DNA of 56,006 bases, filler included, from Sphacelaria rigidula (Eukaryota): assembly GCA_964200075.2 (NCBI GenBank). It is 4 parts of 4 records of this genome, joined end to end, with 100 filler letters (N's around TTAATTAATTAA, not from the genome) between each part and the next. Parts side by side here need not be neighbours in the genome. Positions count along the whole stretch, not along the records: positions 14,030 to 27,958 come from CAXNAA020002581.1; 3 more parts are not named here. One strand, 5' to 3'. Below the pieces are notes generated by a model. That model was not told where the DNA came from and did not search any database. It worked only from the letters and a program-made list of their open reading frames with translations. Of the stretch, positions 9,601 through 56,006 are shown piece by piece; the first letter of the stretch is position 1; each line of letters starts with the position of its first letter. The position numbers and the translations under genes were made by a program.

Positions 9601-12600
9601 TCCCCGACGGTAGACGCCTGGCTGGTGGTACGTACCAATACGGCAGCCTCATACGTCTCCCTTCACGCCCAGCCACGGACTTGCACTGATCCTACAGGCT
9701 TCGCGGCGATGGCCTTGTACACTTGACATATCATGGGCATCACCACCACACACGGTGGTACTATGTGCGTTCGTGGATGGAATATTACCCCTCTTGACAC
9801 ACTGCACACGGCGGAAATGAAACACGGCAAAATGAATGTCGCGATTGCGATATGTCGAGACCGACGACGTCAGTGACCGGGTTTTCGTTTGTCTGTACAT
9901 GGTGAAAAATTTCCTGATGGGCGTGGGTCTGTTGTGCGTGTACTCTGTCCCGGAAAAAACAGCGGGACAAGGAAGCGATTCGCAGAGATCGTGCAAGATG
10001 CCTCGAAGACAATATGCGCTTAATCGCGAAGAAGCTTTCGAGGAAGCAGGTAAGAAGTATATTTGATACTTTTTACGATAGCCCCCCTCCCCAAAAAAAG
10101 TGGGGAGACGAGAAACTGCCGATCGTAGACCAGTATACATACCTTGGCGTAGAGATCTCAAAAATCTGTGCTTGGGATGCACGTATGAACAAAGTAATAG
10201 AAAAGGGTGAGGCACAGATAGGCAGGATGGACGGGATCCTCAGAGAGCCGCACCCAGACACTAGGATCAAGAGATATATCCTGATGAACGTGATCGTACC
10301 ATAGCGGGAATATGCAGGAGAAGTATGGGAGGGGAACGTGAAGTTGGTGAAGAGGCTGGAAACAGTACAGATAGCGGTAGCTAGGAAAATTATGAATGCT
10401 CGGAAACGACAAGGAATACAGACTTGAGAGCAGAGTTGGGAATATACGCACTTGAAACAAGCAGAAACATGAGGAAAATGCGATGGCAATTTAGCGTAAA
10501 GAACATGCAGAGAAAGAGATTGCCAGCCATAGTTAATAAAGCTGTATGGACGAAAAATACGAAAGGGAAGGCTGGAGTAAGGTGGGATAAAGAAGTCGAG
10601 AAATATTGGGAAAAGATAGGAGGAAATCAAGACGAAATACTGTCCATAGATGAAGGCGCGGGGTACAAGACAAAAGGAAGAGACTTGACAAAAATAAGGG
10701 GGGGGGGAGCGCTCAGGCGCAAGTAGACGAGGGGAAACACCTGGAGATACACGGGGGGTTGATGGAGGGGATAGGGATGAAAGTATATTTGCACGGGCCG
10801 ATGGACGCTGCGAAAAATCTCAAACTGCGAATTCGGGTGGGGAACCTAGACCTGCCGGAGCTAAGAAAGAGATATACCAGCCGCCGAAAGGACGAGGAAG
10901 TAGATGAACAGGATTCCTCCTGTTGCAAAGCAATAGAGAGCAGAAGTCATATAGTGGCAGAGTGTGAACTATAGAAGGAGGAACGGGACGTGCTAGAGGG
11001 GGAAATGCGGGACGTGAGCGAAGTTTGCATGAAATAGTTTGATGGATCGGACAGTAGGTAGAAAACGATAGCTATACTAGCAGATAGATGGTTGCCACAA
11101 ACGGCGAAACAGGACGGGGATAAGATATGTAGAAGGTTTTGTGTAATCTATGGAGAAACGTAATGGGCGCCGGAATGTTCAAGTGGGCTCTCCTAGGAGT
11201 GGGAATGGTGCTCCGTCTCGAAAGGGATGCGTGGTCAATGGTCAAACGACTAAGGCAAGCAACAAATGAGTACCCCCCCCCGAAAGAAGTGGCTGGTTTG
11301 AGGAGGCAAAATTCACATGTGAATCAAAATGACACATTGCCGAGCACAACGAGAAGCTGGGAATTCCCATGCTTGGGTTTGTTTTCGATAATGTCGTTCA
11401 TATGAGGCCCTTCATGCAGCCTGAAAACAAACATCAGGCGCTATATGACCATTTTCTTCATGACAGTTATGGGCTGCTTTTGGGGTGGGGGCTATCGGAG
11501 AAAGTGTCATTTCTCGTGACACGAATGTGGCCACCTGTCCTGCCCAGCGAGCATGCAAACCACAAGCCACAAACGCACGTGTGCACACCATGAGATAGCA
11601 ACCTCGAGCATGCGCACGGGGGAGCAGCTCAATGACGTTTGAAGTCGGCACTCAACGTCCAACAAAACCTCGGTGCGATGTAATAATCCACGCTGCCATA
11701 CCCCTTCATGAGTTGAGCTGCATGGAATCATGAGAACAGCACAGTTGGCGAAACCACAGGGGCCAAATGTGTGCCATGTTCTCTGTCCTGCCACTGATTG
11801 TATTCTTCAGGAAGAAGAATCAGAGGAAGCGCGGTACGCTCGCCAGTTTCGCTCCGACGGCGAGAAACACGCGGCGCAGGGGATTGACCGAAAGCGCGAG
11901 AGGATCCGACAGCAAAAAGCCTACATGAAGGATCTGAGACGACAGGTAGTGAGTCCATAGCGACTAGCATACCTGAGCGCTTCCGACGACGAGCGTGCCT
12001 CCTACCCCTGTTTGGCATCTAAGATCCCTCCTACACATCACCCTCACCTTACACTCTTACCAACGCCGATAAAGGCGTGTGCGACTGAAGGGACCTAAGG
12101 GACCTAATTCATTTACATCGTTCGGTGGACACGGCTTCCACAGATGAAAGCAACACGAGCGGCCCGAGCTGCGACAGAAATGACGAGCACGGAGCGAGAA
12201 ATGAACGGTAGAACTTTGAGGCTACTGCACGATGACAAGGCGCTACAGGAGGCCGTAAGGTACTTACTCGTCCGCCCCCCCCCCCTCCACACCGCCCCCC
12301 CCGGTTCCAGATCTCATGTGGTGACTACACGGATGAATAAAGATAACTTCCCCAATAGTGGGTACATCGTCGCAGACTGAATCGGGCCCCAGACCTCAGA
12401 GTTACCACATGCTATTTCGAGGAGACACTCTCGTGCGATAGGAACGTCTCACAAAGCATGTGGTCACAGCACTCACGCTCTTTATGGTTGGCTCATATGC
12501 AAGTGAATTTCCCAACGGCAACCATGTATAGTACTCCAAAGGCAGTATGCACCCTGGTCCGGTGTATACATTGAAGTGCGTTTTGTCTGTGCGGCGGAAC

Positions 12601-12931: not shown

Positions 12932-14029
12932 CAGCGGCATAAAAGTAACTGGTATTTGGAGACTAACTGGCGTAGGCATAAAGTCTCTGTTTTCAGTTCA
13001 TAATATCACAGTACAGTAGTAGCACATCGTACGACGAACCGTCTTTCCGCGTTTTAGACAAAAAGGCAATGAAGGAGCTTCCCCAAAAGAGTCTCAACAT
13101 GACGGGTGAACTATCGGATCGATGTATTGTTACTGGAGGGTGGTCATCTTCTACTGCTGTGGTTCAATAACTGATGGAAATTTACCTTTGGATGAACGAA
13201 AGAGCTTGTGAATTTATGCCTTGACCAGTCAGATTTAATGAACGTTGAACTAGAAGGACTGAATAAAACATGGCCGAAGGTACGGCTGAGCGAACAGAGT
13301 GTTCGAATGAATTGATGAGTGGGGTGTGCGATGCGTATGAAAAAATAGACGAGTAAAAACGCGAAAAAGGAGGGCCTGCGGTGGGATACGATATACTTTG
13401 TAGCACATAAAACCGTCACTGCTCTGCACCGGAATGAGCGGCAGGTTGGAGAGTACGGAACTCTGCCAGCACTCGGTACAAGCGCGAACGAGAAAACTTA
13501 TCACCCCACGATATGGATATCGCGGATCCCAACGCCGAATGAAGGGCTACTCCTGTGACCGTGCTATGAACGGCATATCAGCGCCATGAGCACCGTGTTG
13601 GGGTTCAGCTTGTCCTCTACTGGGGAAAGACGAGAGATGGTAGGGCCACCAGCAAGCACGGAGTGGCATATGGCGCGTAGCTGAACCTTTCAAAGCGTTG
13701 CTCCCATTCACAGACACCAAGCGTCAGCAGTATGAACCGATTTGCGCTGACGCTATTTCGGCCAAACGGCATGGATGGAACACAACGTAGTACTACTCGA
13801 CGAATGTGTACGCGCAATAGCAGCGGTGGTACCAAGTGGTACTGATCGAATTAACGTTTAACAGCCGATTTTCGAAAATGGGGTTGAAAAACAAATTGAG
13901 GTTCAACTCAAAAGCCGTGCTTTCCCTGANNNNNNNNNNNNNNNNNNNNNNNNNNNNNNNNNNNNNNNNNNNNTTAATTAATTAANNNNNNNNNNNNNNN
14001 NNNNNNNNNNNNNNNNNNNNNNNNNNNNN

Positions 14030-14078
14030 CGCCTTAGTCATTTGACCATTGACCACGCATCCCTTTCGAGACGGAGAA
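14030..14078 (-). mobile_element. 66-nt C-tailed retroposon module (3' part lost in gap)
   Basis: Near-identical to 11209-11257 on the opposite strand. Confidence 0.85.
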
Positions 14079-14080
14079 TG

Positions 14081-14470
14081 GGAGGGGGGTGGGGTGTACT
14101 CATGATCATGCATGCCATAGTCATCAGACCTTGTGATCTTGCATGCCCGAGGCATATGACCGTCGACCTCGCATCCCTACAAAGCCGGGACGGAGCACGC
14201 CGGGTTTTCGCCGGAACAGGCTCGCAATCAATCACCAACCGCGTCGTGGTACGGAGGGGGGTAGGGGGCGTACTCATGATCTCGCATGTCGTAGTCATTA
14301 GACCATTGGCCTCGCATCCCTGCGAAGCCGGGGCGGAGCACCCCGGTCTTACGCCGGATCAGGCTCGCATTCATCAAGGGTGAAGCGTGGTGATATGTTC
14401 GGCGAGTCGTGTGAAGGGTGAGCTGCATCCTAAGATTGTTCGGCCCGAGGCGTGCTGATTATCTTGCACA
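14081..14470 (-). mobile_element. Two stacked copies of a related C-tailed retroposon 3' end (family 2)
   Basis: 14081-14250 and 14253-14470 both end (minus strand) in GGGATGCG…ATGAGTAC followed by a C-run, and align with 32131-32552. Confidence 0.7.
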
Positions 14471-17718: not shown

Positions 17719-20700
17719 TCATTCCTTATTGGAGGATACCACACACCGTACAGCCTCGATATCTTGGCGTTCGTACTGCCGCCCAATATTGAAGCAGCAA
17801 GTAAGCAAACAACACACGGGACACAGATTCGATGGACAAGATTCCTCTCCCTACTCTTCACAGATACTTGGAAACGCACCTCCATATCTACGCACGCGTG
17901 AAAGACTCTCACCTCGTTTTGCGCCATGTCGGTCACAGCCACCGCCATCTGCCCGTCCAGCTCATCAGCTCTTGGTTCCGGGAAGGCCAGGTCCGAAGAA
18001 GAAGCCAGGTCTGGGGAGGCCAGGTCCGGAGAGGACCACTCCGGCGAAGCCAGCTCCCCCATGAGCTTCGCCTTTTTCATCGGCGCCTCGCTTTCCTCGC
18101 CAGTGACGGAGGTGGCTTGTACATCACAACCCCTACCATCGGCACTCCTCATCCCCGTAGCCAATACAACATCCCCGACTGTCGTGCCGCTGGCACCCGC
18201 GTCGCTTCCATCTACGGTTTCCTTGGCCACCTCGATATCATCTTGCTTCTTCCCGTCCTCCTCCGCTATCGCCCGCGTCCGCTTCCTCTTGCCTGTTGTT
18301 GTGGATATCTCATTGCCATCCGCCTTCTGGCCGTCTGCGTCAGCTTCATATCTTCCGCCTTGTCGACCATTGCGCTTCGTTGATCCCACCGCGCTCGCGC
18401 TTCGCTCCTCACCAGCAGCGACACCTGCTACACCTGCAACACGCGCCTTTTTCCCTCCCCTAGGATCCACGCTGTCATGAGGTGAAGCTGGGGGATCGAC
18501 AGTATCTTCACCTACTGTGTCATCCCGCTTCCTTTTGATGGGCCCAGAAGCTTTATTATTAGGGTGTAGGGGGGCACACCCGCTCACATGACCTCCAGGG
18601 TCCGCGGATGATGGCGCATGACCGGTGACTCCATCCTTCTTGGCCGCAGCCCCATTCCCGCCCGATACTCCTGAGTCCTCGACGTCTATAGCTGGCGATT
18701 TTCTCTTGACGCCAGTGACGGCCGCATCCGCCGCATCGGCACCGGCACCCGGATCCGCATATGTATCATCTTCGGCCGCCACGTCCTCCACACCTCCACT
18801 GCTATCGGCCATCGTCACCGCCGGGTTGGGTTGTGACTGCCCTGGCGGCGGTGGCGGTGGCAGCTTCCTGCTGTACACTAGCAGGTACGCCTGGTCCTTC
18901 AGGACGGTCTCGACGTCAACCTGTACGCAGGGGATGAAGAAGCGATGTTGTTGGGACGGGGCCGGGCCAGGGTCAGCAGCCGGCGCCAGGGAGAGGGGTG
19001 GGAGAGAGCGGGGGGGTGTTGCCTTTTGCTCTGAATGACAAAACGAGCAAAATAGTCAATACACACTATGAAGTCGGATCAGCTTCCCCCTGTAAAACAA
19101 TAGCCTCGAGAACACAATAATTGGTGCCTCTGGTTCCTCTCTCGGGGAGCTGCGCTTAAATGAGCACCCGCTGAAAAACGAGCGGAAAACAGAGTGCATC
19201 ACATATCGCGATCGCGAAACAAAAACTTCACATGGAGCTCAAGTCAAGGAGGGGGGGCACAAATGCGTATACGAAACCCCGCCCATCAGGATGGTTATGT
19301 AGTACTTCGAAGTACATCGAAGAGGATACTGTCTGGCCTGACAAGTGAATCAAGTGCTAAAGGCGCACACGTTGTACAACATACGAAGTGGGGACTTGTA
19401 GTGAAAAAAAACAGTGGCATTAACACGTTTGCCTTGACGTGCGATATGAAGACGAGTCAGCATGGAATGCGTTCATTTGTACCGATGGAGCACTGTTTTA
19501 CTTCGTCGTTTGAAAGTCGAAACGGGTCGCTAGCTATGAACAAATAGTGTACACCAGCAGAGCCGCTGCAGCAGTAGGCGGCTCGTCTTCCTTCAGAGTC
19601 CTCGTGCGAACAGAATTGCCTCGCCCTCCTAAACAGGGCAAAGTGTGAGCATGTCGTGGATAACAGCATCGCTTGAATACCTAACGGTTGCTCAAGAAGG
19701 GCACAGATCACCATGAAACCGTGAGCCCTTGAGCACCAGCTGAACTAGATCGAAACCCGAAATCCCCAAATCATGTGTCGTGCCCAAACGAATGTTGAAT
19801 GCCGCGTAAAAGTGGTGGTGCTGGCGAGTAACAAAGGAGCTGTTCAGCTATAGAATTGAGAGTACGGCGTTGAGGGTCACCATGTAATATCGCTCCGAAA
19901 CTAGGCCTGGCAGCGAAAACATTAGGACCTGCTCAACTGCAACAGCGTCTGGGCTACGGCGTCGAGTGTCACCCGGCGGGTATCGTTCCGAATGAGGATT
20001 CGGCGCCCACAGGGCTGAGCTTACCGCGGTCACGTTGCGGTCGTCCATCTTCTGCCATTGGCCAGCTGCTGAACGAACGTGGGCGTAGTAGTGGCCTGAG
20101 GACATCGAAGGTCCCTCGTGAACGACAACCCTGGTATAAGACGAAAAAGGGAGAAAGGAATAGAAGACCAGAAGACCAGAAGACAACAACAACAACAGCA
20201 ACAACATCGGTGATGAGGGGAAGGCGAGGGCAGAATCCCAGGTGTGTCCATGTGGTCGTGTGGACCGGTCATGAGTGGTGCGCAGTATTGGTCTTCCCCG
20301 TGTCAAATGGATCCAAGAGAAGTACGACCCGTTTCGACTTTGCAAACCACTAGCATAGGCTTGCCCTATGGACCGAGAGTCGCCAACATGTTTCATTTGC
20401 TTGATACAACACATGGTGCTGCTGCAAAAGCAAACAGCATACCCATACCCGTCAAGTTTCACGTACCAATTGCGAATGCTCAAGGGAGCACTACCCGACC
20501 TCTAGGTGACGATATTAAAGAAACTCTGCTCCACGCCGAGATGGTAGCCGGTGTTGCGAGGCGGACAAGATAAAAAATCAGCCGTTCTGTTCCAGGAAGA
20601 AAAAAGACAGTAACCATTAGCAACCGACATACCATCAGCGAATCTCAAGAACTGGGGCGGGATGCATCGGCTGGATTCCATTGGGAAAAGGGAGCATTCA

Positions 20701-23700
20701 GTGTGTGCTGTGTATTGATGCCCAAGACGGCTTCACTTGTGGAAAATATATTCGTCAGGCTGTCTTGAAATTCATTATAGAGACAACGCGATTCCTCCCC
20801 CCCCCCTCTCCCGTTCTCCACCGATTCACCAAACCATAGTTGCGTAGAACATGTGTACACATTAGGTAAGATCATTCAAGGTGGGAAAGGCGTCGGGCTG
20901 ACAACGTACTTTTTATTTCTGGACGTATAAAAGGCTTGTGACACACAGTATGAATAAATTAACTGTGGGAAAAGATGCGAGAAACTAGAGGATAGATGTG
21001 GAGAGGGGTGAAGATGATAGAATGTGCTGAATGTGTTACGATGCTAGACAGGGAAATCCAGAAAACGTTTGATATTTTGCAAGGAATTGCACAAGGATGT
21101 ACGTTATCACCCACTCTGTTCAAGGTATCCATGATTGACCTGATAATAGCGATGGAAGCAGAAAAGCAAGGTGTCAAGGTGGGTGAAGATATGCTATCAG
21201 GATTGATGTTCACGGAAACACCAGAAGGGTTGCAGACGCAAGTAGACAAGGCGCTAGAATACACTGTAGGAAACGGAGAGTGACAGCGAGCCTTAGAAAA
21301 TGCGCGGTACTTGTATGTAACGAAGATGAGAAAAATCCGGTAGAGTTCAAGTGGGAGTGGGGAGAAGAGGAACTGCTGATCGTAGACCAGTATAAATACC
21401 TTGGCGTAGAGATCTAAAAAATTGTTCTGGGGATGCACACATTAATGAAGTAATAGAAAAGGGTGAGAAACAGATAGGCAGGATGGACGTGATCATCAGA
21501 GTCTCACACCTAGATACCAGGATTATGAGGTGTATTGTGATTAATGTGATTGTAGCAAAGGTGGAATGTGCAGGGGAAGTATGTCAAGGAAACGCGAAGT
21601 TGGTGAAAAAATTGGAAACAGTACAGCTGACCGCAGCTAAGAAAACACAAGGATGCTCGAAAACGACGAGTAATACAGCATTGAGGGCAGAATTGGAAGT
21701 GTACCCACTTGAAACAAATACATGAGAAAATTAAAATGGCAGTATAGCTTACTACCTTTAGACACAACCACTGATAAAAGCGCAAATATGTCCGTGATGA
21801 TATCGAAATACTGACTGCGCTCATCTACGAATGTGAGTAATATCGGTAAATCCTACCCATACGCAGCCCCGCCAGTCCACGCCTTCCCGTAAGAGGCGCG
21901 GATTTGAGCTTTCCCAAGGCGAGATTTTCGTCGCCCAAACCCACTGCAGCACTCTCGCCCAAGGGCTCTCAATCTGCCCTCGTGGATGTCTGCTTGTGTT
22001 ACGGGTAAGGCTGACGTTACGCCCTTTGCTCTTCGAAACAAGGCAAAAATTCACGTATTTGTCAAACCATGGACAACAAATGGGGGCCTCGGAGGGAATT
22101 CACCTCCTCTTATTGCTGCCGGAAATCCAGTATCATGACGAACACACCACATTCACGAAAAGAAAAATAAGAAGGGCCACAGCGCACGATTCTTCTCCCT
22201 CTGTGAGCGGATGTATCGAAAGGGGGGGCGTACTCATTTGTTGCTTGCCTTAGTCATTTGACCATTGACCACGCATCCCTTTCGAGACGGAGCAGGATGT
22301 ATCGAAAGGGGACGGGTGACAAAAACCGGGGTACGATTCACGCCCTTGATTAGCTTACCCTTTGGGGCTGTCTTCTGGGGCTGATGGCATTGCACTTTTT
22401 TGTTTTCCGGGCGGCATACCTAGTTGGGACTAGAGTGAGTCAATGTATTCACGACCTCATCTTGCAGCACTGCAAATATCGCTGCTGGTCCGTATAAATA
22501 CTCAAAGGGTGAAAATGGCGTCCCCTTCCTACGCGAAATAGTTTGGCTTGCCATCTCCCTGTTTGTCTTTCTGTCTCACCCGGTCAGGACGTACTCCGCG
22601 AAGCGTTCCGGGCCCGACACTTCGAGTCGAAGATCTCCTGTAAACTTTACCTCTTGCTCGAGTTTTTCCACGTCGTTTTCCCACGGCATCGCTGTTCTCT
22701 TCAGATTGAGCACCAATGCGTTGGGAGGCTTGAAACAAACGAGAAACAAACGCAGTCGATCAATTCATTTTTCAATAAGAAGAGAAAAAAGCAGAGGGCG
22801 ACGGGCGAGACGCGGGGAAAATAGGGAATGTTGTGAACCTGAAAGAACCGCACAGATTTCGTACATTGCACATGAAATTTCAGTAGTGTAGGTCGTTCGT
22901 TATTTTACCTCATCCAATTATTCGAACATGTATTTGTACTTTGTTTCTTCGACTGCTTCGGGATATCTCCTTCCACTATTCTTATCTCCCCCTCCTTCTA
23001 TTATTCACACGTGTGCTGCTCTGACTCAAGAGTGCTGTTTGGATTGAATGCATTCTTCGTGTTTCCCCCAAGATGAGTACTCAACATGAAACTTCTACTC
23101 CCCAATCCTACATTCTCTCCAATTTTCACAACTCCTCCTCGAGGTCGACTTCATTCAATCTCATCCCTCGGGGCCATTTTACACGACGTCAATGCTTGCT
23201 TGCAGTCACCGTCCGAGAAGCTTTTCACGCGGTCTATTGCCTTGTGACAATGTGGCTGGACTCATAGCATGTCAGGTCATGCTCCAGAATCAACAGACTA
23301 ATCCACCGATCAACGAACCGATCGACCAAGCGTACAAGAATGGATGAAGACAGGGCATGGGAGCTGCAAAGGTATGACCCATTCCCCACCACGGGGAGGG
23401 GAGGAAAGTGTAGTCATTTGCCTGGAATAAGGGGGTTCGTGGCGGGTGTAATGTATGACCAACGTCTCAACGTGGCTCCTTCGGGCAGCAATACTTGTAC
23501 TGTATCGGTGAAACAGCCTTCTCTCGACCGTCGCATGGCTATCATACTTCACTCACGGTACAATCATGCAAGAGGAGAACAGGCGCTCTAAAACATGTTG
23601 AGCGCCCGCGCGGTGCCGCCCGGTACATGAAGAAGGAACAAGGACAAATCGAGCAGGTACTGTACGCACGTACGGTACGCCAAGCTCAGCAATACCACGA

Positions 23701-26700
23701 CCGAAGACACGGGGGGGGGAAACGGAGCATAAATCACTCCACGCACCAACAATCTGCCGTTTTCATCACCGCCCCCAACAGTCAAACCACGATGGTGGCA
23801 AATCACGTAACCGATAGAAATCACACCGCCACTGCCAACCTCTGCGCTGTGTTTTCCATCAATTCTACTCTTTACTTTTCGGAACGTGTCCGTAGTATTC
23901 ACAGATCGATCAACCTGCGGCATTTTCAAAGCAAGGAAAATGTCGGCGCTTCAGCCGCACGCATCAGTCACTATTTAAAATAGAGTCTTGCAGTTTGGAA
24001 AAGAAAAATTGCGACACCAAGAATAAAGCTACACAGAAACACACAAGACATGCTGAAACATTCGCCAAAATCCACCGAAAAACTTCGCTACACATCAGTA
24101 TAGTTCTCTTTTCCCCCTCACAATGAAGCACCGGAACTGTTCCAGAAAATAGGTCACGACACACACACACACACAAAAAAAAACAAATTGCACGGAGGTA
24201 CATCGCGATTGTTAACGAAAGAACATAGTCACCTTGTACACCGTTACGCGCTTTTCCGCGCGCACTTTTCGCTCGCAACCCCCGCACTCCCATAGGTTGT
24301 CCTCGTCCATCAGCTCCACGGCTGTGAAGCGCTCGAACAACTCCTCAAGGGAGCACACTCCATCTACTCCATCGGCCAGCGGTAGAGACAAAGACAAGTC
24401 GAGGAATGCCTCGTACTTGTCACGGCAATACCCGCATGAGCGGCATTTTAACTGCGGGAGGGGTGGAGGGTGAAGGGGGCGACAAGTGAGAAAACGATAA
24501 TGCATCATTGGTTGTCACTCTTCCATGATTGCTGCCATCAATATTTCATCACCACCATTATCATAAACTTTTCGAAGAGTAGTCGTTTTCGCTTGACGTT
24601 GCGTTACGATGCGCAGTCTTCCATCATGTTTTCCCAATATCATTGTTGGTATTCTTGCTGGTACAATATCATCACCGCTGCCGTAGTCGGAGAAAACCCA
24701 CTCCAGCTCGCTCACTCTCTTCGTCTCTGTCTCTCTGTTCGTCTGTGTCCTTCTCTTTTCCTCTGTGATCGCCCTGACTCTTGAGTTGAGGTCGACGGAA
24801 AACAGCTCGCCCGCCGCGCGAGAACAAACTAAAAACAAGACACAGCGGGTTTCCAATGTGAAATAAATGCTATAAATATTAATTTCTTCTTTTTTCATCT
24901 GCAGTTTTAGTGCTAGTTCTAGCGTTTCATGTTTTCCTTTCTTCATTCACTGTCACTGGAATTTATCCTAGTCCAATCATCGTTATTTGGATTAGTTTTA
25001 GGCTGGTTTCACTAGTTTAGGGTTTTCGTGGGAAAATTCCACGGGAAAAAACACGGAACGGGACAGATTTCTCGCCATGTTCCTGGGCGCGGACGTACTG
25101 ACGTATCCCGTCTCGACTTATTCCCGAACATTCCGTCGCATCCCGTGAGTGTTCGGCGATGGGAAAGTTTCCCGCCTCGTCCCGTCATTATTGTGGGGAC
25201 AAGGATAATTTCCGTCCCGCCAACGCGAGATGTTAATGAGAGTTTCCCGTTGTGCCTCACACGTAATCCTGTCCAATCTCACAGGAGATTGAAGATATCT
25301 TGGGGGTATATTCGGATAATTACCGCATGTTACACATTCATCTTACCGAAAAGGTTGGAATCTCCGATATTGGCGTATACTAAAACCTGAAGGCATCGCT
25401 TGCACGAAACCTCCGTCTCGGAGCAATGTCGTTTCGGATTGCTTGCCCATATTTCCCGTGACAAGGGGACGGCGAAGGACGGGAATTTCACGGGATGGTC
25501 ATGATTTTCCTGCGGAGACCGGAAGGGAGTTTCTAGTAAACACATGTACTCTTTCGTGTGCCATTCCGTCATTTTTTGCCACGGGAACTTTCCCGTCCCA
25601 TCCCATCCCGTCCCGTCGCGTCACGTCCGAGAGGACGGGTATTCCAGACCCACCCTGTCCCGTTTCCTCGTGAAAGTCCTGGGCTCCACCAAGAGACACA
25701 ATCGTCAGTTCCCACAACACTTTTCAAACGCTACGGACAAGGCCCGAGGCTTCAAGCACGTCCTCTCCCCGCGTGTATCCAACCCCTGCCCGTGTTGCAG
25801 GGTGCATGTCGTCACCTCTTGCCCACCAGTTTCGAGGGCGTTTCTCGACAAGTTTAGATTTTCCTTCCATGTGGTATTTTTACCGTGTATTGATCCACAT
25901 AAGACGGCTATTATGGGCAGGCACATGGACACGTTAGCGTTAGATCGCCACCCTGCTCCACGCACTCTCTGATGCTTCTGCATCTCCGTCTACTACTGAA
26001 GGTGCAGCAGATGGGCAGGGTGATGCAATATGCCAGGGCCAGTTCGACGTTTCCCGTCTTTTTGGTGTTTTCCTCTTATCCAATCCGCAGATGAGGGCAC
26101 GCCGCCCCTCACCGATAGAATTTCCTGGTTGCACATCAGGCTTTTTCACGTGAATATTTTTGGTTTCTGCTTCTTCATACTTTACCGCACATGAGCGTCG
26201 TGGGCAGGGAACACGTGAACAAGGTGCACGTCTCGTAGACTTCATTGACTTCCGCTTTTTTTTTTTTTTTGTGTAGTGCAAGGCTCCGAGGCGGGTGTGA
26301 TGACGTAGAGTACAGTACTGTGAAGGAACATTGCACCGTGTCATGTCTCAGCGTCGCGTGCACGTTGAAAGGACGAGCTGTTTGATTCGGTCCAGTGGAA
26401 AATATCTGCATTTGTGCTTGGCTCTAGTCATGCCCGTTTCTCCCAATGGTGGGCCCAACTTTATCCCACAGAGCCCACTCCGATTCCACCTGTGCTCTCG
26501 TACTCTCACGCTCAAAGGTTGCCGGGGAACCTTCTACAACAACCCGTTCGCTCGAGGGTTTACGCTCTGCTTTCCCAGGGGTGGGATTTAGCGCTAGCCG
26601 TTCGAAGTCCAAACTAAGGGCGGGATTCGTCGTTCTCACGACTTTGATATCATGGTCGGGTCCCTCCCATTTATCCTATTCATCTATCCATCCATCTATC

Positions 26701-27896: not shown

Positions 27897-27958
27897 GGGG
27901 GGGGGGGGCGTACTCATTTGTTGCTCGCCTTAGTCGTTCGACCATTGACCACGCACCT
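27897..27958 (-). mobile_element. 66-nt C-tailed retroposon module (5' part lost in gap)
   Basis: G12-CGTACTCATTTGTTGCTCGCCTTAGTCG… matches the module. Confidence 0.85.
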
Positions 27959-28058
27959 NNNNNNNNNNNNNNNNNNNNNNNNNNNNNNNNNNNNNNNNNN
28001 NNTTAATTAATTAANNNNNNNNNNNNNNNNNNNNNNNNNNNNNNNNNNNNNNNNNNNN

Positions 28059-31144: not shown

Positions 31145-31842
31145 ACGTGTGGGGCCTGTGCACTTGTGAAAAGGGAGAGTCGTTTTCCGCAGTTTGAACG
31201 TAAACGGCCGATGTTTTACCGCGAAAAGAGTGAAATGAGATAAGCAACTGAGAGCACTTGGTAATTTACGCGTGACGAGTGATTGGTGATCCGTGTAGCC
31301 AGAGTATGACGAGACTACCTGAACCTCCACTAAGCCTGCGCTTGGTCTACAACCTAAAGAGAGAACAGCCAGCAGGAGCAATGGCAGGAGCAATGGCTAT
31401 TTCACCGCACTGCCCGGTCACGAGCCTCTCTCTTGAGCCACGCACGAGCACACATGTCCGAAAAGATCGCTCGCACTACAGATGAACTGCCCGTTCCGAC
31501 AAGGCTTGAGAGATTCGTTCGAACGCAACGGCTACTTGTAACGGGGGCAATTCACGTATGATACAGGCTTCGAAGAGTGGGGCGCGAACGGGTACGAACC
31601 AGCGCGGCGTAACCGAAAAGCTGGTTATTGAGTACAGTGGCTCAACATTCTAGCGCGAGCAGCGCGCAAAACACGCGTAAGGATGCTTCATTCGTTTCCT
31701 GCTCGCACATTCAAACATGCTCGAATACTGACTTCCGTGTTTTCCTCGCATATGTTTTTGTAGGGTCGGGGGGGGGGGGGATTTTGGACCATTTCACCAC
31801 GACAGCAGCAATGGTTGTTCGAGCACGGTTGTTACCGATGTA

Positions 31843-31964
31843 TAGCACTCATTCATACTGCTTGACACGGCACTTACCGAAACACAAGCGCACCCTGAGT
31901 GTGTTAGGTCGTCCGACACACCCATGAGCCTTTGATGATCGAATCAAATATCCCGCGCCCCCCC
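31843..31964 (+). repeat. Dispersed repeat ending in a C-run (family 3, copy 1)
   Basis: Aligns with 36632-36761. Confidence 0.65.
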
Positions 31965-32354: not shown

Positions 32355-32552
32355 GCCCAACAATCTCAGCAAGATGCAGCTCACCCCTCATGCAACTCGC
32401 CGAACACATTAAGGCACCTCATACTTGGCGATTGACCGCGAGCCTGGTCCGATGAAACCGCGGCGCGCTTCGTCCCGGCTTTGCGGGGATGCGGAATAAG
32501 CGGTCTTGCGACGACGGCATGCAAGACCATGGGCACCCCCCCACACCCCCTC
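32355..32552 (+). mobile_element. C-tailed retroposon 3' end (family 2), interrupted upstream by the MITE
   Basis: Aligns with the reverse complement of 14253-14445 (GATGCAGCTCACCC…CGTCCCGGCTTTGCGGGGATGCG…CATGGGCA followed by a C-run). Confidence 0.7.
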
Positions 32553-33305: not shown

Positions 33306-34354
33306 ATGAAGATCCTCTTGCTTCTTCTACTGAGGCTCACCGCCTTCTTGGGCGACTCCGCAGGTGGGCTTGAACAACAATATAAAAACTGTATCGATGG
33401 GTATTCGTGTCCTACAAGTGACGGCAGTCGCTTACTCGCTTGTGTGATGCGTCATGTGTTTGATCCGCAGCCAGGTTGAGGAAAAAATGAGGGAGTTCAT
33501 ATCCCCGGCATGATGAGTTGAGCTACACACACACAGAGGCATCGACTGCTAGTCTAGCTGCTAACATTTGCCAAATCGCCTTCACAGATACAGCACGAAA
33601 CCCGTGCAGTGGAATGTAGTCGTTCTTGAGCCACAAGTATTCTCCCACATGTCACACCGGGTCGAGTGGCTCTTCAGTTCCCTCCAGTGCGAAGATACCG
33701 TCTGCTCTCGATCTCGTTTTCGTTTAAGTGAAGTTAATTGTTTGCCTGTGCCTACCCCCCTCCTCCCCTAATGCTCCGTCTCGAAAGGGATGCGTGGTCA
33801 ATGGTCAAACGACTAAGGCAAGCAACAAATGAGTACGCCCCCCCCCCTCCTCCCCTAACCCTACCCCAATCGTTCTTTCTCCCGCATCATTCCTCGCTGC
33901 TGTGTGTCACTGCTGCATTTGCTGGGGCTGGCGAACTCGCAAGCTGTCCCAGGGACACTGTGTCCCGAGGGGGTGAGTAATCGATTCGTCTCCACCACGG
34001 CGGATGCTTTGGAACTGAGCGACGCGTTGCTCTGTTTGGGGCGCGGTCAGTTCGAGGTTGAGTGGAGCGGCGAGGTGTTGTTAACACGAACCATTACCAT
34101 ATCGAATGTAAGCTCGGTCGCGGTTTGGGGGCATGGTGCGGAGGAGGCCGTGATGGACGGTGGCGGTGCCGTTCGGCTCTTCGAGGTCGACGGCGGGTCA
34201 ACCCTGGAGATCAGTAACCTGTCTCTCGTGGGAGAGTGGGCGGAAAATGAGGAAACATCTACTGGGAGCGGCGGGGTAGTGCTCATTTCAGACTTTTCCC
34301 AACTGACTGCGTCCAGCTGTTTTTTCATAAGCAACAAAGCTAACGCTTCTGGAG
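33306..34354 (+). CDS. Secreted Pmp/adhesin-like (beta-helix) protein, N-terminal two exons only
   Basis: Exon 33306-33363 (signal peptide MKILLLLLLRLTAFLGDSA) joins in phase to exon 33944-34354 (…FEVEWSGEVLLTRTITI…AVMDGGGAVRLFEVDGGSTLEISNLSL…GGVV…FISNKANASGG). This resembles brown-algal polymorphic-outer-membrane/adhesin-like proteins. Downstream exons were not found. Confidence 0.65.
33772..33841 (+). mobile_element. Stand-alone 66-nt C-tailed retroposon with 17-bp TSD
   Basis: Flanked by CCCCCCTCCTCCCCTAA at 33755-33771 and 33842-33858. It lies in intron 1 of the adhesin-like gene. Confidence 0.9.
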
Positions 34355-36631
34355 GTAGGACTTGTGTTTTCCATAACGTTGTACAAAGTTTCTCCCCGTT
34401 CTCCCCGTACCCCGTGTGATGCAGTACAGTATTACCCGTATCCAGCATACTGGGCAGTACCAAAGTTCTAACGTCAGATCCTGACAGAACGTCATGTAAT
34501 CCGTGCGTTCATTGTCACCTCTTGAAACCTCCCTAGATTTCTCGTGCCCGGCAGTATGAAGGTGAAAACTAGAACCAGATGGTTTTACTGGTCGATACTG
34601 AGGGACGATACATGCCAAACTGGTGCTGGTGATGCGGGAAGGACATTCAGATGAAATGGCCCACACGAAACACATACAAATGGAAGGTATGAAGGAAATG
34701 CGCATGTATGCATCGCAAATAGGCAAAAACGATACATGAAGAAAATATCGGTGTCGCACACCGAGCCAGGGTACCGGACCAGCGAACGAAGCCGGGGAGA
34801 CTTGATGTGCGATTGCACCCCCCCCCCCACACACACACACACGGAAACACGCACACACGCACACACGTACACACAGCGGAAAAAACGTTTTGAGGGTGGA
34901 CATCGGTTAGCAACGACGCTCTGAAATCATCACTTACCGCGCAAGATAGGCAACCAGCTTTCGTTACCGCTTTTGTTTGCTTGATTTGTTTGGGGAAGGT
35001 AATCGTGGCGATGGTCGAGCTGGATCATATTGTGTGGACAACTCGAACTCTGTGCAGAGGGGATGATGGTACTACGTAGTGTTCATATGGTGAGACACCT
35101 ATGGCGCAGTGCGCATCCCGTGGCCGTCTCTGGAAGTGGCGATACCAGAAAATGCAGCAACTCATTCAAAGCTCCCATCTAGAAGCAAGAGGATCGATAC
35201 ACTTCGGGCCGAACAACCTTCGCAGGGCATTACAACCTCATCACCAGATACGGAGTATTGAAAAACCTGAATCAAATCGCCAAGCAACACGCATGCAACA
35301 TGCAAGCGTTGGAAGGCTCAGTCTGGCCACCACGGTCTATCAAACATCAATAAGAATAGAAGCCACAACCCCGCAAACAGCAAGGGTGCCCTAGAAAAAA
35401 GACCGAATATCTGTACCTAATCGTGAAACCGCAGAAGCCCAGCTAACCCCGTTTCCTACGGTTCATAGTTTATTTGGGCTCGTACTCTCCACTTTTTGGA
35501 AGTTTGACGCGGTTTTTGGCCGCAAAACAGAGAATATCGCCAGCACACGCCTTGGCCACTTTTTACCGCCCTACCTGGAGGGGTGTAGCCCGCTTTTCCG
35601 TATCGCACGGCTTCGACGTGAAGATACCTGCAGATACCTCATTTCATTTTGCAGCTGTACCTTTGTCCAGAGGCCGTTTTCGAAACCTCGGAGCCGTGCA
35701 AATCGGACACGTGGGCTAGACTCCTCCAAGGGGAGCGAAGCAAATTGTCTTTGATGTGTGATGGCGATATTTTTCTGTTTCACGGCGAAAGCTCATGCCA
35801 CATATCTCCAAAGTGGAAACTTCGAGCCCATAAAAACGAACCGTAGGAAACGTCCCAAGATACATGAAAGTCGCAAGTCACAAGCTGATTGCAGTTAGCA
35901 AGAGTAGTGGCTGGCTTCCAAATCCAGATCCCGACCATCTTCAGTTGTAGATAGACGGCAGACATATACCAGGTGCTATGGGCGTGTTGGCGCTCACTGC
36001 ATGCTACCGATATTGCTCTTCTTGTTCTGGGATTCGAGGTGTTCTGCCCCTGTTTGTGTCATGTCCTCCTTCTCCGCACGAGCTTCCTCCCACACAAAAA
36101 ATCGGTCTAGGCGCCGAGTCGAGTTCCCCTTGAATTTTTCAAATCTCATCGTCTACTACATGAGAGAGCCACACTCATACTTAATCGTAGGACGAAAAAA
36201 GGAACCTGGGCAATGATTACGGCTCATCTGCTTCGACCTCATGCTGCTGGGTATGGACCTGTCATCCATGAACCCCACGGGAGCGAGGCACCAAACTGCT
36301 CTTGCACACGCCGGTAGGAAGGATCACATACATGGAGGGGAAAAGGGGGGAAAGCTAGCATACTTGTGAACAATTTTCATATATCTTGATGATGCAGACC
36401 TCGACAAATCCCATCCCTACAAGATATTGACCTCCGAAGTCCAGACCATCGAACCCGATCATTTCCGTTAAGATATTCGTAACTTTGGTTTTGTGCACAT
36501 TAATGGCTACATGAGTCATCCTGCGATAGCGCGGGCGGGGGGGGTATTTTGTGCCATTTCTTGCACCAAATTCCGTGGCGAATAGCCGTCGAAAGCAGGA
36601 ACGATTGTTCGAACAAGCTTGTTATAGATAT

Positions 36632-36761
36632 ATGACGCTCATTCATGCTGCTTGACTCCGTTTTTGACCAGATACAAGCGCACCGCGAGTGTGGCAGGTC
36701 GTCTGACACACTCATGAGCCTCTTTTTTGGTGCAATCAAATACCCCCCCCCTCTTCCCCCC
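36632..36761 (+). repeat. Dispersed repeat ending in a C-run (family 3, copy 2)
   Basis: Aligns with 31843-31964 and ends in AATCAAATA followed by a C-run. Confidence 0.65.
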
Positions 36762-36947: not shown

Positions 36948-39900
36948 TGCAGCCTCTGCCAGACGATCTGGACAAGAGGACTATCCACGAGGGACTACTA
37001 CTGCAGTAGCACTGGTCTCGTGCTCGAAAGGTCTCTTTTTCTCACTTGTTATTATCACGGAGTGATCCTTCACAGACCGCAACACCAGCCAGTAGCAAGG
37101 GGCCACATAGTAAGAGACATCAATCCAGGATCCCCTGTCCCCTGCCACTTCTCCAATCATACATGCGACTATACTGAAGCCTAAGGCTTGCTACCATCCG
37201 GCTACAGCACCCCCAAAGCGAGTTCAAGACAATCGAGCCTTATCATCCCACGGAATCCACAAAACATCACTTCTGCTTACATGAACGCGAAACAAACCAT
37301 CGTCAGCCAAGGCAGCTTGATCGAAAGTCGTAGGAAAAGAATGAACACCGTCGCCGACTGATTTGCCCTGCGCGGTACGGATGACATCTAACGAGGGCAG
37401 CGAATCATCGGCATCGCACGGGCTGTACACGGCAACAGAACGAACAGGCACAGTAGGAACCTTCACCAAGCGAGACAACAAATCTACCCAACAACTGCGC
37501 TCTCCAGGAATGTGTTCAATAGCCTAGCGGTATTGGCCTAGTACTCCTTTCCAATTTTCAAGCCGTTGGGCCATGACCTTCGTCATCGATGTGACACACT
37601 CGTCGGGGTTCAAAATGTATTTGAGATTGCGATGATCGATGAAAATGCCAACACTACCACAAAGCAAGTACTCTAGCCTTCGAAATGTATTGACTGTCGC
37701 GAAACCTTTCTTGTTCACTGTCGCCCACCGCAGCTGTGAACCCTTAAAGCTACCACTCAGAAATGCAACGGTTCGTGTGAAATGTTTTCTAGCGCAATGC
37801 CACTACTAAACTTTGCGACAGACACTTGCGTAAAAAGACTACCCCAATGAAAATCCGAAGCATCTGGAAACATGAGAACAACGCACTCTGGACGAGGATG
37901 ATACAACGGCACCGATTGGGCCACCAAATCTTGCGCAGCACGCCATGCCTGCACACGATCCTCCGTCCAAGCGTCCTCCAGAATGGTACGATTGCGCGCC
38001 ACCCGCTTGGTCCGACGCGAAGCCCCGACCATAAGTTTTCCCAGAAATACTCGCAGGGGAGCAACGACTTCCGCCATGCGCGGGAGCGAAGTCCGCGACC
38101 AATTCATCACCTGCAGAAACTGCATCAGCTCACCAGCGTTTTGAGGACGTCGCATATTTCTCAAACCTCGGATGCGAATGGGATCATGCGAGACAGTACC
38201 CTTGGAGGAAACCCTACCACACCGAACCACTTTGCAGGCGAAACAAATTCACTTATGCGCAGCGACGACCAGACCAAACCCTTTCAAGTGGCCAAGAATT
38301 TCGTCAAGCAAAGCTAACAATGTTTCTTCTTTTTCATTAACATAGAAAACGTCATCCACCTTCACTTTACAACCTAGAGCTAGCAAAATGTCATTCACCA
38401 CACCTTGGAAATACACCGTGGCGTTCAACACGCCCTGCGGAACACGAGAAGGCGTAAACAAACCGTCCGCCGTGACGATCGTGAAGATCTTCTGAGCCTC
38501 CGGCGCCAGAGTCATCTGCCAATACCCTTGTAGCATGTCCAACGTGCCGAAGAATTGGGCTCCTAGCAAGTCCTGCATGTCTTCTTGGCTTGACATCACC
38601 CCCGGCGACTGTTCCACTTGCGCATTCACCGTCTGATAGTCGCTGATCAAACGGAATGTGTCCCATCGGCGGGCTCACCTACACAGCCTAAATGTTCCTG
38701 ACCAACAAACCAGACCACCAAAGCTGCGATGCATGAGGCAAGCCACCCGGTCTTCACCGGATCGTACCGTCCGGGCTTGGCCTTCACCGCATTTGCCTGG
38801 GGCTTAAGCTGCACCCTCATGGCCTCAACGCGCGCTGACGGATCACCACGCAGCGCACGGCGAAATGTATCTACGCGACGAGCCAAAATATCGCGCAGGC
38901 AATGTGCGCCATCGGCGCTCAGGCCCTTCTGCTCGGCCTGCCGCACACTATCCTCAAGCGCACGTTCTTGGGCACCTCTCTTCTCTGCTGGGTCCATGAA
39001 CATGTCCGCTCTGAAATGACCGTATGGAGACGATCACACGACTTGCAGCAGGATGGGTGGGGTTTTCCACGCCGGTTTGCACCGGCACAGCACGTGAACG
39101 TAACAGATCGATCCCGAGCCCCTTCATCGTCGCCATCCGAAATAGAACCACGTTGTCCCTACCGGACATGGACAGCAAAAGTAATGGGCTGCAACTCCAC
39201 AGCCCCCCATGGCGTACGCACGCTAACAGTAATTGGCCTCGTTTCATGGGTAACCGTCATGGGAGCACCCGCGGCGGTCTGCGCCGTTTGCGCTTCGTTT
39301 TCGAACGGAATCTGAAACTGAGCGCCGCCAAACTGCGAAGACACTTGCTCCAGCAACCCCACACCGATTGACGTGAGCGGACCCAGAATCCAGAATAACG
39401 CAAGCCATGAACAACCCTAAAGAACCAGGCAAGGATAAATCTGCGCGTAAACACTCAGCCTTGCGATCGACAAGTACCACGCCTGCTGAAGAACCCTGTT
39501 CGGTACCAAGAGTCACCTGAGGCCAGGGCTGCCCTCCAGCACTTGGCATCGATAGCTGCGAACCGTCGGTCCAACCAGACCAAGCCGCCGAATATGCAGA
39601 CGGCGCTGTTACAGCCGTCGCAGCACTAGGATATGCACAAGACACGGATCCTACCTGGCCCGGGGAATACGAGCTATTCGCTCCAGCAATCCCCACCGAA
39701 GTATTTGCACTTCCCACGTAAACTGTCCGTCCCGCTACGGACGAACCATGAGATTCAGAGTCACCGACTGTAGTGGAAGAAAAAGCTGCGGGGGAACCAC
39801 TATCCGCCGCCGATTGCTTGCTACCGCGGCCGCCGCGCCCGCTTCTCTGACTGGCACGGCCTCATCCACCGTGACGACAGCCCCGAAATCCTGATGAATC

Positions 39901-41190
39901 TCGCGCATTGCCCTGTGCAGCGCCTTGAGCGCGAGGCTTGGGGAAATCCTTAATCAGATGTCCGGTGTCACCGCAGTTGTAACACGCGCGAGCGGACGAC
40001 TCTCGCGAAGACGGCTGCTATCTCTGTTGCCGTTGCTGTGTGCGGCGAGCATTACCTGCACTTGCCGCAGAATCGCGCCGGCTATGTGCCTCAATAAATT
40101 TCCACTGGTCGGCGGCTTCAAGTATTTTCTTGAACACCACCGTCGGATTATTTTTCCAGCCGTCAACATTCGTTGGTGTACTTCTAACATACGCCTTGAA
40201 TTCAGGAGGCGAAATCCCGTCTACCAAAGCTATGGAAACCGACTCGACCGGGCCTGGCAAACACCAACCCCTGTCCTCCGCACGGTATATTGCTTGCACC
40301 ATCAGGTTTTCTGCGAAACATATTTCCATATCTGAGCTGACCATCTTAGTACGATCCTTAACAGATTTTCCACCACTCTGTGTCATAGTAAGAACTCTCC
40401 ACAGGTCTGCTGCAGCTCGCGCAGTGTCATGCTTTCCACCGGTTGTAGTGTACCCGGCATGCTGCTTCAGAGCATCAAGCAATCCATCGGGGGTCATAGC
40501 ACGACGGTCCTTGTTTATATCTTCAAAACAACGATGAATGTATGTAGGGGTGAGTTGACCTATGCTCGCCCTCTCATGCCTCACAACGCCTGTACTAGTG
40601 GCTAAACTCAGCCTCTCTAAATAGTCGAGATAAGCGGCTTAAAATCTTCTTGACGCCTCTTCCGTCCACACTTCGCCATACTTCGGCGGCTCTAGTGGCT
40701 CACCTAACACCAGCGGCGCTGCCGTCGCTTGAGCCATGTCGTCCATACTTCAAACACGTCACGGAAAGACTCTCGCCTGACTTGTGCGCCCCCCCGGCTC
40801 GCGGAGCGTCCCCCACTGCTGTGCGCTTCAAGTTGGTCTCCTCCTGTCTGCGTGCTGAACTGGCTCTCAGCTGCAGCCCACTTTCTCCTCAGCCAAACTC
40901 CTCTAACAGAGTGCCGGAAGAATATGTAGATATTATAGCCTCTGCCAGACGGTCTGGACAAGAGGACTATCCACGAGGGACTCCGCCAGTAGCACTGGCC
41001 TCGTGCGCGACAGGCCCTCTCTTCTCACTTGTTATTATCACGGATTGATCTTTCACAGACCACAACACCAGCCAGCAGCAACGGGCCACACAAATAATGG
41101 CCACAAATCCAGGATCCCCTGCCCCCTGCCACTGCTCCAATCATGCATGCGATTATTCTGAAACCTACGGTTTGGTATCATTTGGCTACA
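36948..41190 (-). mobile_element. Degenerate Ty3/Gypsy LTR retrotransposon (gag-PR-RT-RH, integrase deleted)
   Basis: LTRs at 36948-37206 and 40934-41190, both ending GGCTACA. Internal domains: gag-like ORF 40018-40584, protease CVILDSGS (~39400), RT FFGTLDMLQGYWQ/VPQGVLNA/VDD (38249-38650), RNase H FPDASDFHWG…IFIDHRNL (37520-37900). Multiple frameshifts. Confidence 0.93.
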
Positions 41191-55932: not shown

Positions 55933-56006
55933 GGGGGGGGGGGGCGTACTAATTCGTTGCTTGCCTTGGTCGTTTGACCATCGACCACGCATCCCTTTCG
56001 AGGCGG
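55933..56006 (-). mobile_element. 66-nt C-tailed retroposon module (runs off window end)
   Basis: G12-CGTACTAATTCGTTGCTTGCCTTGGTCG…CCCTTTCGAGGCGG matches the module. Confidence 0.85.

Follow-up and report, generated by a model that had tools for sequence, protein, structure and literature searches.

A very abundant 66-nt C-tailed retroposon matching the 3' end of a LINE in Sphacelaria rigidula

We analysed a 56,006-nt stretch of DNA from Sphacelaria rigidula (assembly GCA_964200075.2), hereafter the window, and found that a 66-nt unit within it, TGCTCCGTC…ATGAGTACG (TGCTCC…GAGTACG) followed by a C-run, is a genuine retroposon, very abundant and active in recent times. We think it likely that the unit is non-autonomous, that it comprises only the 3'-terminal recognition module of a long interspersed nuclear element (LINE), and that it is copied by the LINE's proteins through target-primed reverse transcription (TPRT) with priming of a target G-run on an oligo-C tail. 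The window (GC content ~50%) is made of four pieces of 13,923–13,929 bases each, joined by linkers of the form N44-TTAATTAATTAA-N44 at 13930–14029, 27959–28058 and 41984–42083. The pieces look like size-sorted contigs of a draft assembly and not like a single locus, and adjacency across the linkers is not genomic.

The unit and its C-run occur six times in the window, as a preliminary description of this DNA had stated: a scan with a 31-nt core of the unit gave five matches at no more than 3 mismatches (11233+, 22240-, 27920-, 33796+ and 55956-; 0 expected by chance in 100 shuffles), and BLAST added the sixth, at 14031-14076/78(-). Two copies are complete and stand alone, and both carry exact 17-bp target site duplications (TSDs). 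The first (minus strand, 22229–22294; read directly and found by core scan and BLAST) has the T variant at the AAAYGAC site and lies between the 5' TSD copy at 22295–22311 (CCCCTTTCGATACATCC, read directly) and the 3' copy at 22209–22225 (read directly and found again by a TSD scan). Seven C's follow its GTACG, 4 of them part of the TSD, leaving a tail of 3 C's at 22226–22228; the sequence then continues as TTTCGATACATCC, and the whole insertion with its TSDs spans 22209–22311. The second (plus strand, 33772–33837; read directly and found by BLAST) lies between TSD copies at 33755–33771 (CCCCCCTCCTCCCCTAA) and 33842–33858, both read directly and the latter also found by the TSD scan, with a tail of 4 C's at 33838–33841. 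Both intact TSDs begin flush with a C-run (C4 or C6) that is preceded by a base other than C, which would place the first nick exactly at the run edge. Direct reading thus agrees with the preliminary description, which had noted both the C-run at the start of each TSD and the 3–4 extra C's.

Three further copies, all on the minus strand, are incomplete: the 5' part of a unit at 14031–14078, preceded by the C-rich tail or TSD of a related element (family B, below) and reading TT where the unit has TG; the 3' part of a unit with a C12 run (27897–27908) at 27897–27955; and a 92% identical unit with a C12 run (55933–55944) at 55933–56006. The first two are cut by contig ends and the third by the end of the window, the cut falling on the 5' side in the latter two; we attribute three breaks inside a 66-nt unit to the disruption of assembly by a very abundant repeat. 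The 5' start base is equivalent in all three short copies in which it can be read (22294, 33772 and 14078), again as first described. A C-run of 7–13 terminates all 9 copies read in the window and at the outside loci described below, and tail length differs among copies.

The 33772 copy is a polymorphic insertion. We aligned Logan contigs of four public runs to window positions 33500–34100; runs X1 and X3 come from one organism, X4 is presumed (as a guess) to be RNA, and X6 is filed as 'algae metagenome'. One X3 contig (record 9) joins 33607–33754 at 0 mismatches straight to 33842–33925 at 2 mismatches. This is the empty-site allele: it skips 87 nt, equal to the 66-nt unit, CCCC and one 17-bp TSD copy; a 17-bp repeat alone cannot yield this join with 31-mers. 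In X1 and X6, a paralogue or haplotype of ~91% identity likewise skips 88 nt. The 33772 insertion is recent.

The same contigs speak to abundance. Those aligned, nearly all on the unit in X1 and X6, number 81,851 in X1, 8,447 in X3, 2,758 in X4 and 61,614 in X6, and summed contig depth over the unit exceeds that of the flanks 10^5-fold. Contig depth ratios are not copy numbers, and we read these figures only as the unit being present in tens of thousands of distinct contexts, consistent with six copies in 56 kb. A C/T site at 33810 divides the copies at 16–31% of depth. Loose ends behind 33844–33855 run on as C's, indicating that tails elsewhere are often longer than that of the 33772 copy.

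Outside the window, scans with a degenerate core pattern led to the parent element, which the preliminary description had guessed at and which proved to be a LINE with an apurinic/apyrimidinic endonuclease (APE) and a reverse transcriptase (RT). The pattern matched two loci in metagenome contigs (L001 and L002) and one in genome contigs (L003); viral contigs gave 0 matches to it and 0 confirmed by protein scan. Each of the three loci shows the unit at the very 3' terminus of the LINE, where it takes in the final ~20 codons with their TGA stop, plus 5 nt beyond. L002 has an open frame of 1426 residues (P0001) with its stop inside the unit, 5 nt ahead of the C-run; the frame ends …AAC AAA TGA GTACG, then the C-run, and the element is essentially without a 3' untranslated region (UTR). 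P0001 matches Exo_endo_phos (PF03372) at residues 235–461 (E 6.7e-13) and RVT_1 (PF00078) at residues 807–1056 (E 1.1e-30), and its best matches among proteins of solved structure are human L1 ORF2p (E ~3e-22) and R2 proteins. Judged by the APE upstream of the RT, the LINE-type RT, the TSDs, the variable 5' truncation and the lack of long terminal repeats (LTRs), the parent is an APE-type non-LTR retrotransposon. Its copies end in a C-run, a departure from the usual poly(A) or short tandem repeats that still allows LINE membership. L003 is a full-length LINE copy whose record is labelled a bacterial metagenome-assembled genome, so that a contig of algal origin has been binned with bacteria; a search of that genome gave no unit copy besides L003's own.

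As to LINE clade, a single long open reading frame (ORF) with a very short 3' UTR matches a trait of RTE. The ~370 residues after the RT of P0001 include, on inspection by eye, a C…C…H…C motif, which is not known to be typical of RTE. Among named proteins, those of Ectocarpus are closest to the LINE protein (59% identity); Ectocarpus members also occur in the cluster of a relative at 73% identity, and the C-terminus of one Ectocarpus protein (P0006) has nearly the same final 20 residues as the LINE. From these likenesses alone, the host would probably be a brown alga or a near relative of one. These relatives are the only support for an RTE or RTE-X link, Ectocarpus LINEs being mostly filed as RTE-X, RTE or CRE (PMC12477816).

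The window itself holds a 5'-truncated parent LINE copy of ~1.18 kb at 10098–11273 on the plus strand (tblastn with P0001 residues 1037–1426; blastn with L001 and L002, 78–82% identity). Its last 65 nt (11209–11273) are the unit without the final G, its TGA lies 4–5 nt before the C-run, and a C8 run follows at 11274–11281. By eye, this copy has a degenerate and inexact TSD-like pair, CCCCCCTCCCCAAAAAAAGTGG upstream and CCCCCCCCGAAAGAAGTGG downstream. An internal LINE fragment without a 3' end (P0001 residues 852–1170) lies at 20826–21751 on the plus strand. The short copies correspond to two different LINE lineages: the 22229 copy matches the 3' end of L001 at 73/73 nt (100%), and the 33772 copy matches the window's truncated LINE copy at 65/65 nt.

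The 3' module is far better conserved than the remaining element. Across the window LINE copy, L002 and L001/L003 (the latter two 96% identical to each other) the last 66 nt are identical at 64 of 66 positions (97%), while the same lineages are 75–80% identical over the upstream 1.1 kb and 79–84% over the 132 nt next to the module. The binomial P for the 66-nt conservation is 6e-5 if divergence is taken as 20%, and the raised conservation begins ~15 nt upstream of the unit. Comparison of these sequences suggests that the module is under selection. At the protein level, a GCVVNG-type motif lies 4–10 residues from the C-terminus (25 in one) in 27 of 121 homologues and persists down to ~28% overall identity, against a background of 0.0026 per 45 residues; this makes the module, along with its constant spacing from the end, a feature of the clade. 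In the predicted RNA fold, nt 1–5 (UGCUC) pair with nt 60–64 (GAGUA), followed by a GAAA-capped hairpin and then a second hairpin. Across families A–D (family A being the unit itself) this outer helix, P1, is fully paired in 5 of 6 sequences and keeps 4 of 5 pairs in the sixth, and one pair of hairpin 1 varies between U-G, U-A and C-G. MAFFT had set a loop indel at the 5' end, and families A–D were re-anchored before RNAalifold was run, a step that favours the expected structure.

Related elements in the window point to C-rich targets as well. At 14030–14420 three of them are chained head to tail in the order C, B, A, each on the C-rich tail of its predecessor. Family C (minus strand, 14269–14420) represents the 3' terminus of a further related LINE family and ends in ATGAGTACG plus CCCCC. 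Family B (minus strand, 14096–14252) is the 5'-truncated 3' end of a related LINE family, with termini TGCTCCGTC…ATGAGTAC and a C-rich tail; on either side of it stands ACCCCCCTCC, at 14253–14262 and 14081–14090. Family B starts 16 nt past family C, and the A unit starts 17 nt past the end of B, suggesting that each insertion took place on the C-run of the preceding one at about the TSD distance. The tails of families B and C carry A and T interruptions (CCCCCTACCCCCC, ACCCCACCCCCC). Family D (plus strand, 32382–32542) is an older, diverged relative of families B and C (68–75% identical) that ends in C7 at 32536. Together with the truncated LINE copy at 10098, which is preceded by CCCCCCTCCCC, the family B junction at 14252 and the A junction at 14078 add three C-rich targets to the two with intact TSDs. 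These junctions, the LINE 3' terminus, the exact empty site and the TSDs flush with a C-run all uphold the retroposon reading put forward earlier. The window is rich in C-runs in general: C7 words on both strands number 93 against 5.9 expected from dinucleotide shuffles, a 16-fold excess, and just some of the ~36 separate C/G runs of at least 7 in the 56 kb can be assigned to elements covered in this account. A TSD scan of all window C-runs of at least 5 gave 3 matches, two of them the known unit insertions.

We propose that the LINE endonuclease would act on the complement of the element strand, nicking it immediately 3' of a G-run (5'-Gn/H-3'). The G-run so released would anneal to the 3'-terminal oligo-C of the template RNA, thereby priming cDNA synthesis, and the second strand would be cut 17 bp from the first nick. 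In the simplest case the C tail would perpetuate itself, with read-through RNA copying the adjoining C-run into the next round and slippage altering its length. A different origin of the tail, which we rate as rather improbable, is that the template RNA ends in …GUACG and that a nucleotidyltransferase adds the oligo-C before priming. The two young copies do show a like surplus, 3 and 4 C's over the target run, and the 5' and 3' ends of the unit can form an acceptor-like helix. However, the surplus is seen in those two copies only, ARAGORN gave no tRNA-like call, and the A and T interruptions in the family B and C tails resemble target sequence or mutated runs. A tail templated by read-through keeps our preference on these points.

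In many public contigs the tail (33841–33855) is linked to the first bases of a unit, so that units follow one another head to tail at a period of 69–84 nt. The joint from 33847 to 33772 occurs in 48 X1 contigs and 40 X6 contigs; among the best-supported 15 of 85 rows, 129 of 182 X1 contigs land on 33772 itself and 182 of 182 within 33771–33776, which extends the common 5' start beyond the window. The letters between arrayed units include AACGG, GG and G, which are the LINE sequence immediately upstream of the unit. Such arrays could be taken to mean that the unit with its C-run is mainly a satellite, spread by unequal crossing-over or replication slippage, and that the dispersed copies are a minor by-product. 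We regard this as very improbable: no second A-family unit comes after any of the six window copies, the sole array in the window is heterologous (C, B, A), two stand-alone copies carry TSDs and one has an empty site, and the unit coincides exactly with a LINE 3' terminus. More plausibly, the RT would run off a true 5' end of its template and sometimes jump to the tail of another template, giving head-to-tail arrays.

The fixed 5' end is the weakest step of this account. Our tentative suggestion, to which we give somewhat less than an even chance, is that the template may be a LINE-derived RNA trimmed or processed to a structured, protein-bound 3' module. We favour it because the joints from tail to nt 1 resemble jumps between templates at a genuine RNA terminus, and because LINE-templated extensions occur at the junctions and the short copies match two LINE lineages. 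Template jumping after run-off is a behaviour of the R2 reverse transcriptase, and the interpretation of the joints builds on it. Consistent with a sharp end, loose ends ahead of the unit peak at 33772 in each run (1088 in X1, 284 in X3, 154 in X4 and 928 in X6, among the best-supported rows), with the next peak at 33774 or 33771; their upstream consensus is LINE sequence in X3 and C-rich in X1 and X6.

The end could also arise with no mini-RNA at all, if reverse transcription or integration halts 66 nt from the 3' end of a long LINE or read-through RNA, stopped by RNA structure or a bound protein; the short copies would then be dead-on-arrival truncations at a strong hotspot. We consider this rather unlikely. 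It fits short copies that correspond to at least two LINE lineages and junction letters (AACGG, GG, G) that are LINE-templated, and other truncation points do exist (the 1.18-kb copy at 10098; families B and C, whose starts lie upstream of the point equivalent to the 5' end of the unit). In the LINE, moreover, a GGAGUA located 13 nt upstream can base-pair with nt 1–6 of the unit, which might act as a road-block. Yet such an upstream hairpin should stall the RT before nt 6 and not at nt 1, families B and C have the shared motif without being truncated there, and the many joints from tail to nt 1 are easier to derive if the RT runs off a genuine RNA 5' terminus and then switches template.

An RNA starting at nt 1 might instead be transcribed from the unit itself, as a SINE-like mini-gene (SINE, short interspersed nuclear element) with an internal RNA polymerase III (Pol III) promoter or an initiator/downstream-element Pol II promoter of the kind found in Drosophila LINEs. 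The 5' ends scatter by a few nt about one position, as transcription start sites do, and the very high copy number suggests that copies act as sources. We nevertheless hold a mini-gene to be a poor candidate. No Pol III A or B box is evident by eye in the unit, just as the preliminary description had reported; ARAGORN finds 0 tRNA genes in the window, and Rfam gives no match on the window at its gathering threshold. The unit is, furthermore, LINE coding sequence conserved across a clade, and the LINE-templated junction extensions imply that at least some templates carried upstream LINE sequence. Returning to a processed LINE RNA, the broadest form of the idea would be that a whole clade of (brown-)algal LINEs carries oligo-C tails and primes reverse transcription from G-runs, and that a module embedded in the final codons of the ORF is released as a discrete ~66-nt RNA by an undescribed processing step or exonuclease resistance; as a whole this is speculative, and we would not expect it to hold in full.

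Several points weigh against the account given here. Intact TSDs number only two and empty sites only one, counting the window and the public contigs together. Runs X1–X3 may derive from the source sample of the window assembly, which makes them incompletely independent of it. The joint figures describe the best-supported 15 of 85 rows and the loose-end figures the best-supported 24 of 548, and the loose-end counts at 33772 mix stand-alone copies with LINE-attached ones. Head-to-tail joints with merely 4–10 C's misfit a 17-bp TSD and demand an extra mechanism. The conservation of the 66 nt may be explained in part by constraint on the peptide or by 3'-end recombination between lineages. As to structure, fold energies are not below those of shuffles (z -0.96 to +0.01), and covariation supports one base pair only.

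What is unusual about the unit is its C tail and its C-run targeting; otherwise it is LINE/SINE-like. With SINEs it shares a LINE-derived 3' end, TSDs and a high copy number. A SINE in the strict sense was rejected, as no Pol III head was found (ARAGORN, Rfam) and the whole unit is LINE sequence. The preliminary description knew of no such system, and our literature search likewise yielded no C-tailed LINE or retroposon, with the bracketed spelling 'poly(C)' and the family notes of the Ectocarpus transposable element (TE) library outside its reach; a brown-algal TE library may well list this family already, without remarking on it.

The closest mechanistic parallel is with human L1 and Alu, in which the poly(A) tail anneals at the endonuclease nick TTTT/AA. 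In both systems TSDs start with the tail base and are ~15–17 bp long, priming at the nick appears to use a homopolymer, and 5' truncation occurs. Unlike L1, the unit has a tail of C that does not come from ordinary polyadenylation, and a conserved 3' module is seemingly needed, whereas L1 needs none. RTE-class elements, reportedly described by Malik and Eickbush in 1998, are said to have very short 3' UTRs and truncated copies that were once called SINEs. They resemble the present elements in a single APE+RT ORF that reaches almost to the 3' end and in short truncated copies mistaken for, or acting as, SINEs. RTE tails are AT-rich short repeats, and no discrete 66-nt class or C-run targeting is known among them. 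Kojima and Fujiwara are reported to have described LINEs that target microsatellites (Waldo, Mino, Kibi and Koshi), inserting into simple repeats of the same kind as those at their own 3' ends. Their targets are di- or trinucleotide repeats, whereas the unit targets a mononucleotide C/G run of 4–6 nt.

Some LINEs are processed by ribozymes, with ribozymes like that of hepatitis delta virus (HDV) in R2, RTE and L1Tc and hammerheads in Penelope-like elements and retrozymes. The unit is like these in a sharp RNA 5' end within a longer transcript and in tandem arrays. In contrast to them, the ends of the unit are ragged by a few nt, and the known self-cleaving classes (HDV-like, hammerhead, twister, hatchet and pistol) were rejected because cmscan gave no ribozyme match at E<=10 for the unit, its LINE context or the tandem region: nothing was reported for 14030–14420 and 33700–33900, and 11000–11330 gave only a chance SAM_alpha match (E 7.7). 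Platy-1 (~100 bp) is likewise a very small retroposon, dependent on L1; it is larger than the unit, A-tailed and far less numerous (~2200 full-length members according to its abstract).

The passages on LINE and SINE tails in PMC3747384 name poly(A), (TTG)n, (TTGATG)n and poly(T), with no poly(C) among them. The stringent LINE/SINE pairs treated there (eel UnaL2/UnaSINE1 and RTE-tailed SINEs) are like the unit in being short, in sharing the 3' end of a partner LINE, through which recognition presumably occurs, in having TSDs and in ending in a slippable 3' repeat (PMC3747384); the unit differs in having no tRNA, 7SL or 5S head, just a 66-nt coding LINE tail, and in a repeat that is a C homopolymer. 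For Ectocarpus, the main text of PMC12477816 (2025) lists CRE, RTE and RTE-X LINEs. RTE-X and its partner RTEX-N1_Ec32 parallel the present case as brown-algal LINEs with an abundant non-autonomous partner that carries the LINE 3' end, but RTEX-N1_Ec32 is ~600 bp long with a 5' part of unknown origin, unlike the 66-nt unit, and that main text makes no mention of C tails, C-run targets or a 66-nt form (PMC12477816). Poly-C tracts are also known within L1 3' UTRs, not as tails (PMC5381506).

If the proposed priming is correct, a C tail matched to C/G-run targets would mean that the L1 logic of a tail annealing to the nick works on another base and without polyadenylation. The 66-nt terminal module would likewise represent a practical lower bound for a LINE RT template and offer a compact substrate for TPRT in vitro. 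Because the module overlaps the end of the ORF, coding and RNA-signal roles would be combined in one sequence. The unit breaks short-read assemblies and is polymorphic within the species, and may therefore both affect assembly quality and supply a marker system. Should the clade-wide reading with a discrete RNA also hold, this would be the smallest known retroposon, with ~10^4–10^5 copies and still active.

Other C-runs in the window have different origins. The third match of the TSD scan (41122) was rejected as a C-tail insertion; it belongs to long direct repeats ~4 kb apart, at ~37100–37180 and ~41085–41165 (…ATCCAGGATCCCCTG…CCCCTGCCACT…CTCCAATCAT…). These are probably the LTRs of an LTR retrotransposon, and the ORFs between them gave no Pfam match. 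The C-runs at 36537–36751 and 31768–31964 were also rejected as retroposon tails, being the inverted termini of an element resembling a miniature inverted-repeat transposable element. This element is ~200–215 bp long, starts with a G-run, ends with a C-run (GGGGGGGGTATTTTGTGCC… …GGTGCAATCAAATACCCCCCCCC) and is present in two oppositely oriented copies, showing that some C-runs of the window are transposon ends and not tails. At 23711–23735 on the minus strand lies ATGCTCCGTTT with a C9 run behind it, much like the unit's first 8 nt fused to a C tail; it could be an internally deleted copy or a chance likeness. Finally, two stretches of coding appearance were seen on the minus strand: an open frame at 19851–20501 with a partial ubiquitin C-terminal hydrolase (UCH) match (E 1.9e-7), probably a host gene exon adjoining the internal LINE fragment, and, at ~45400–45500, a coding exon that confirms a eukaryotic host and resembles ribosomal protein S10e (translated by eye).

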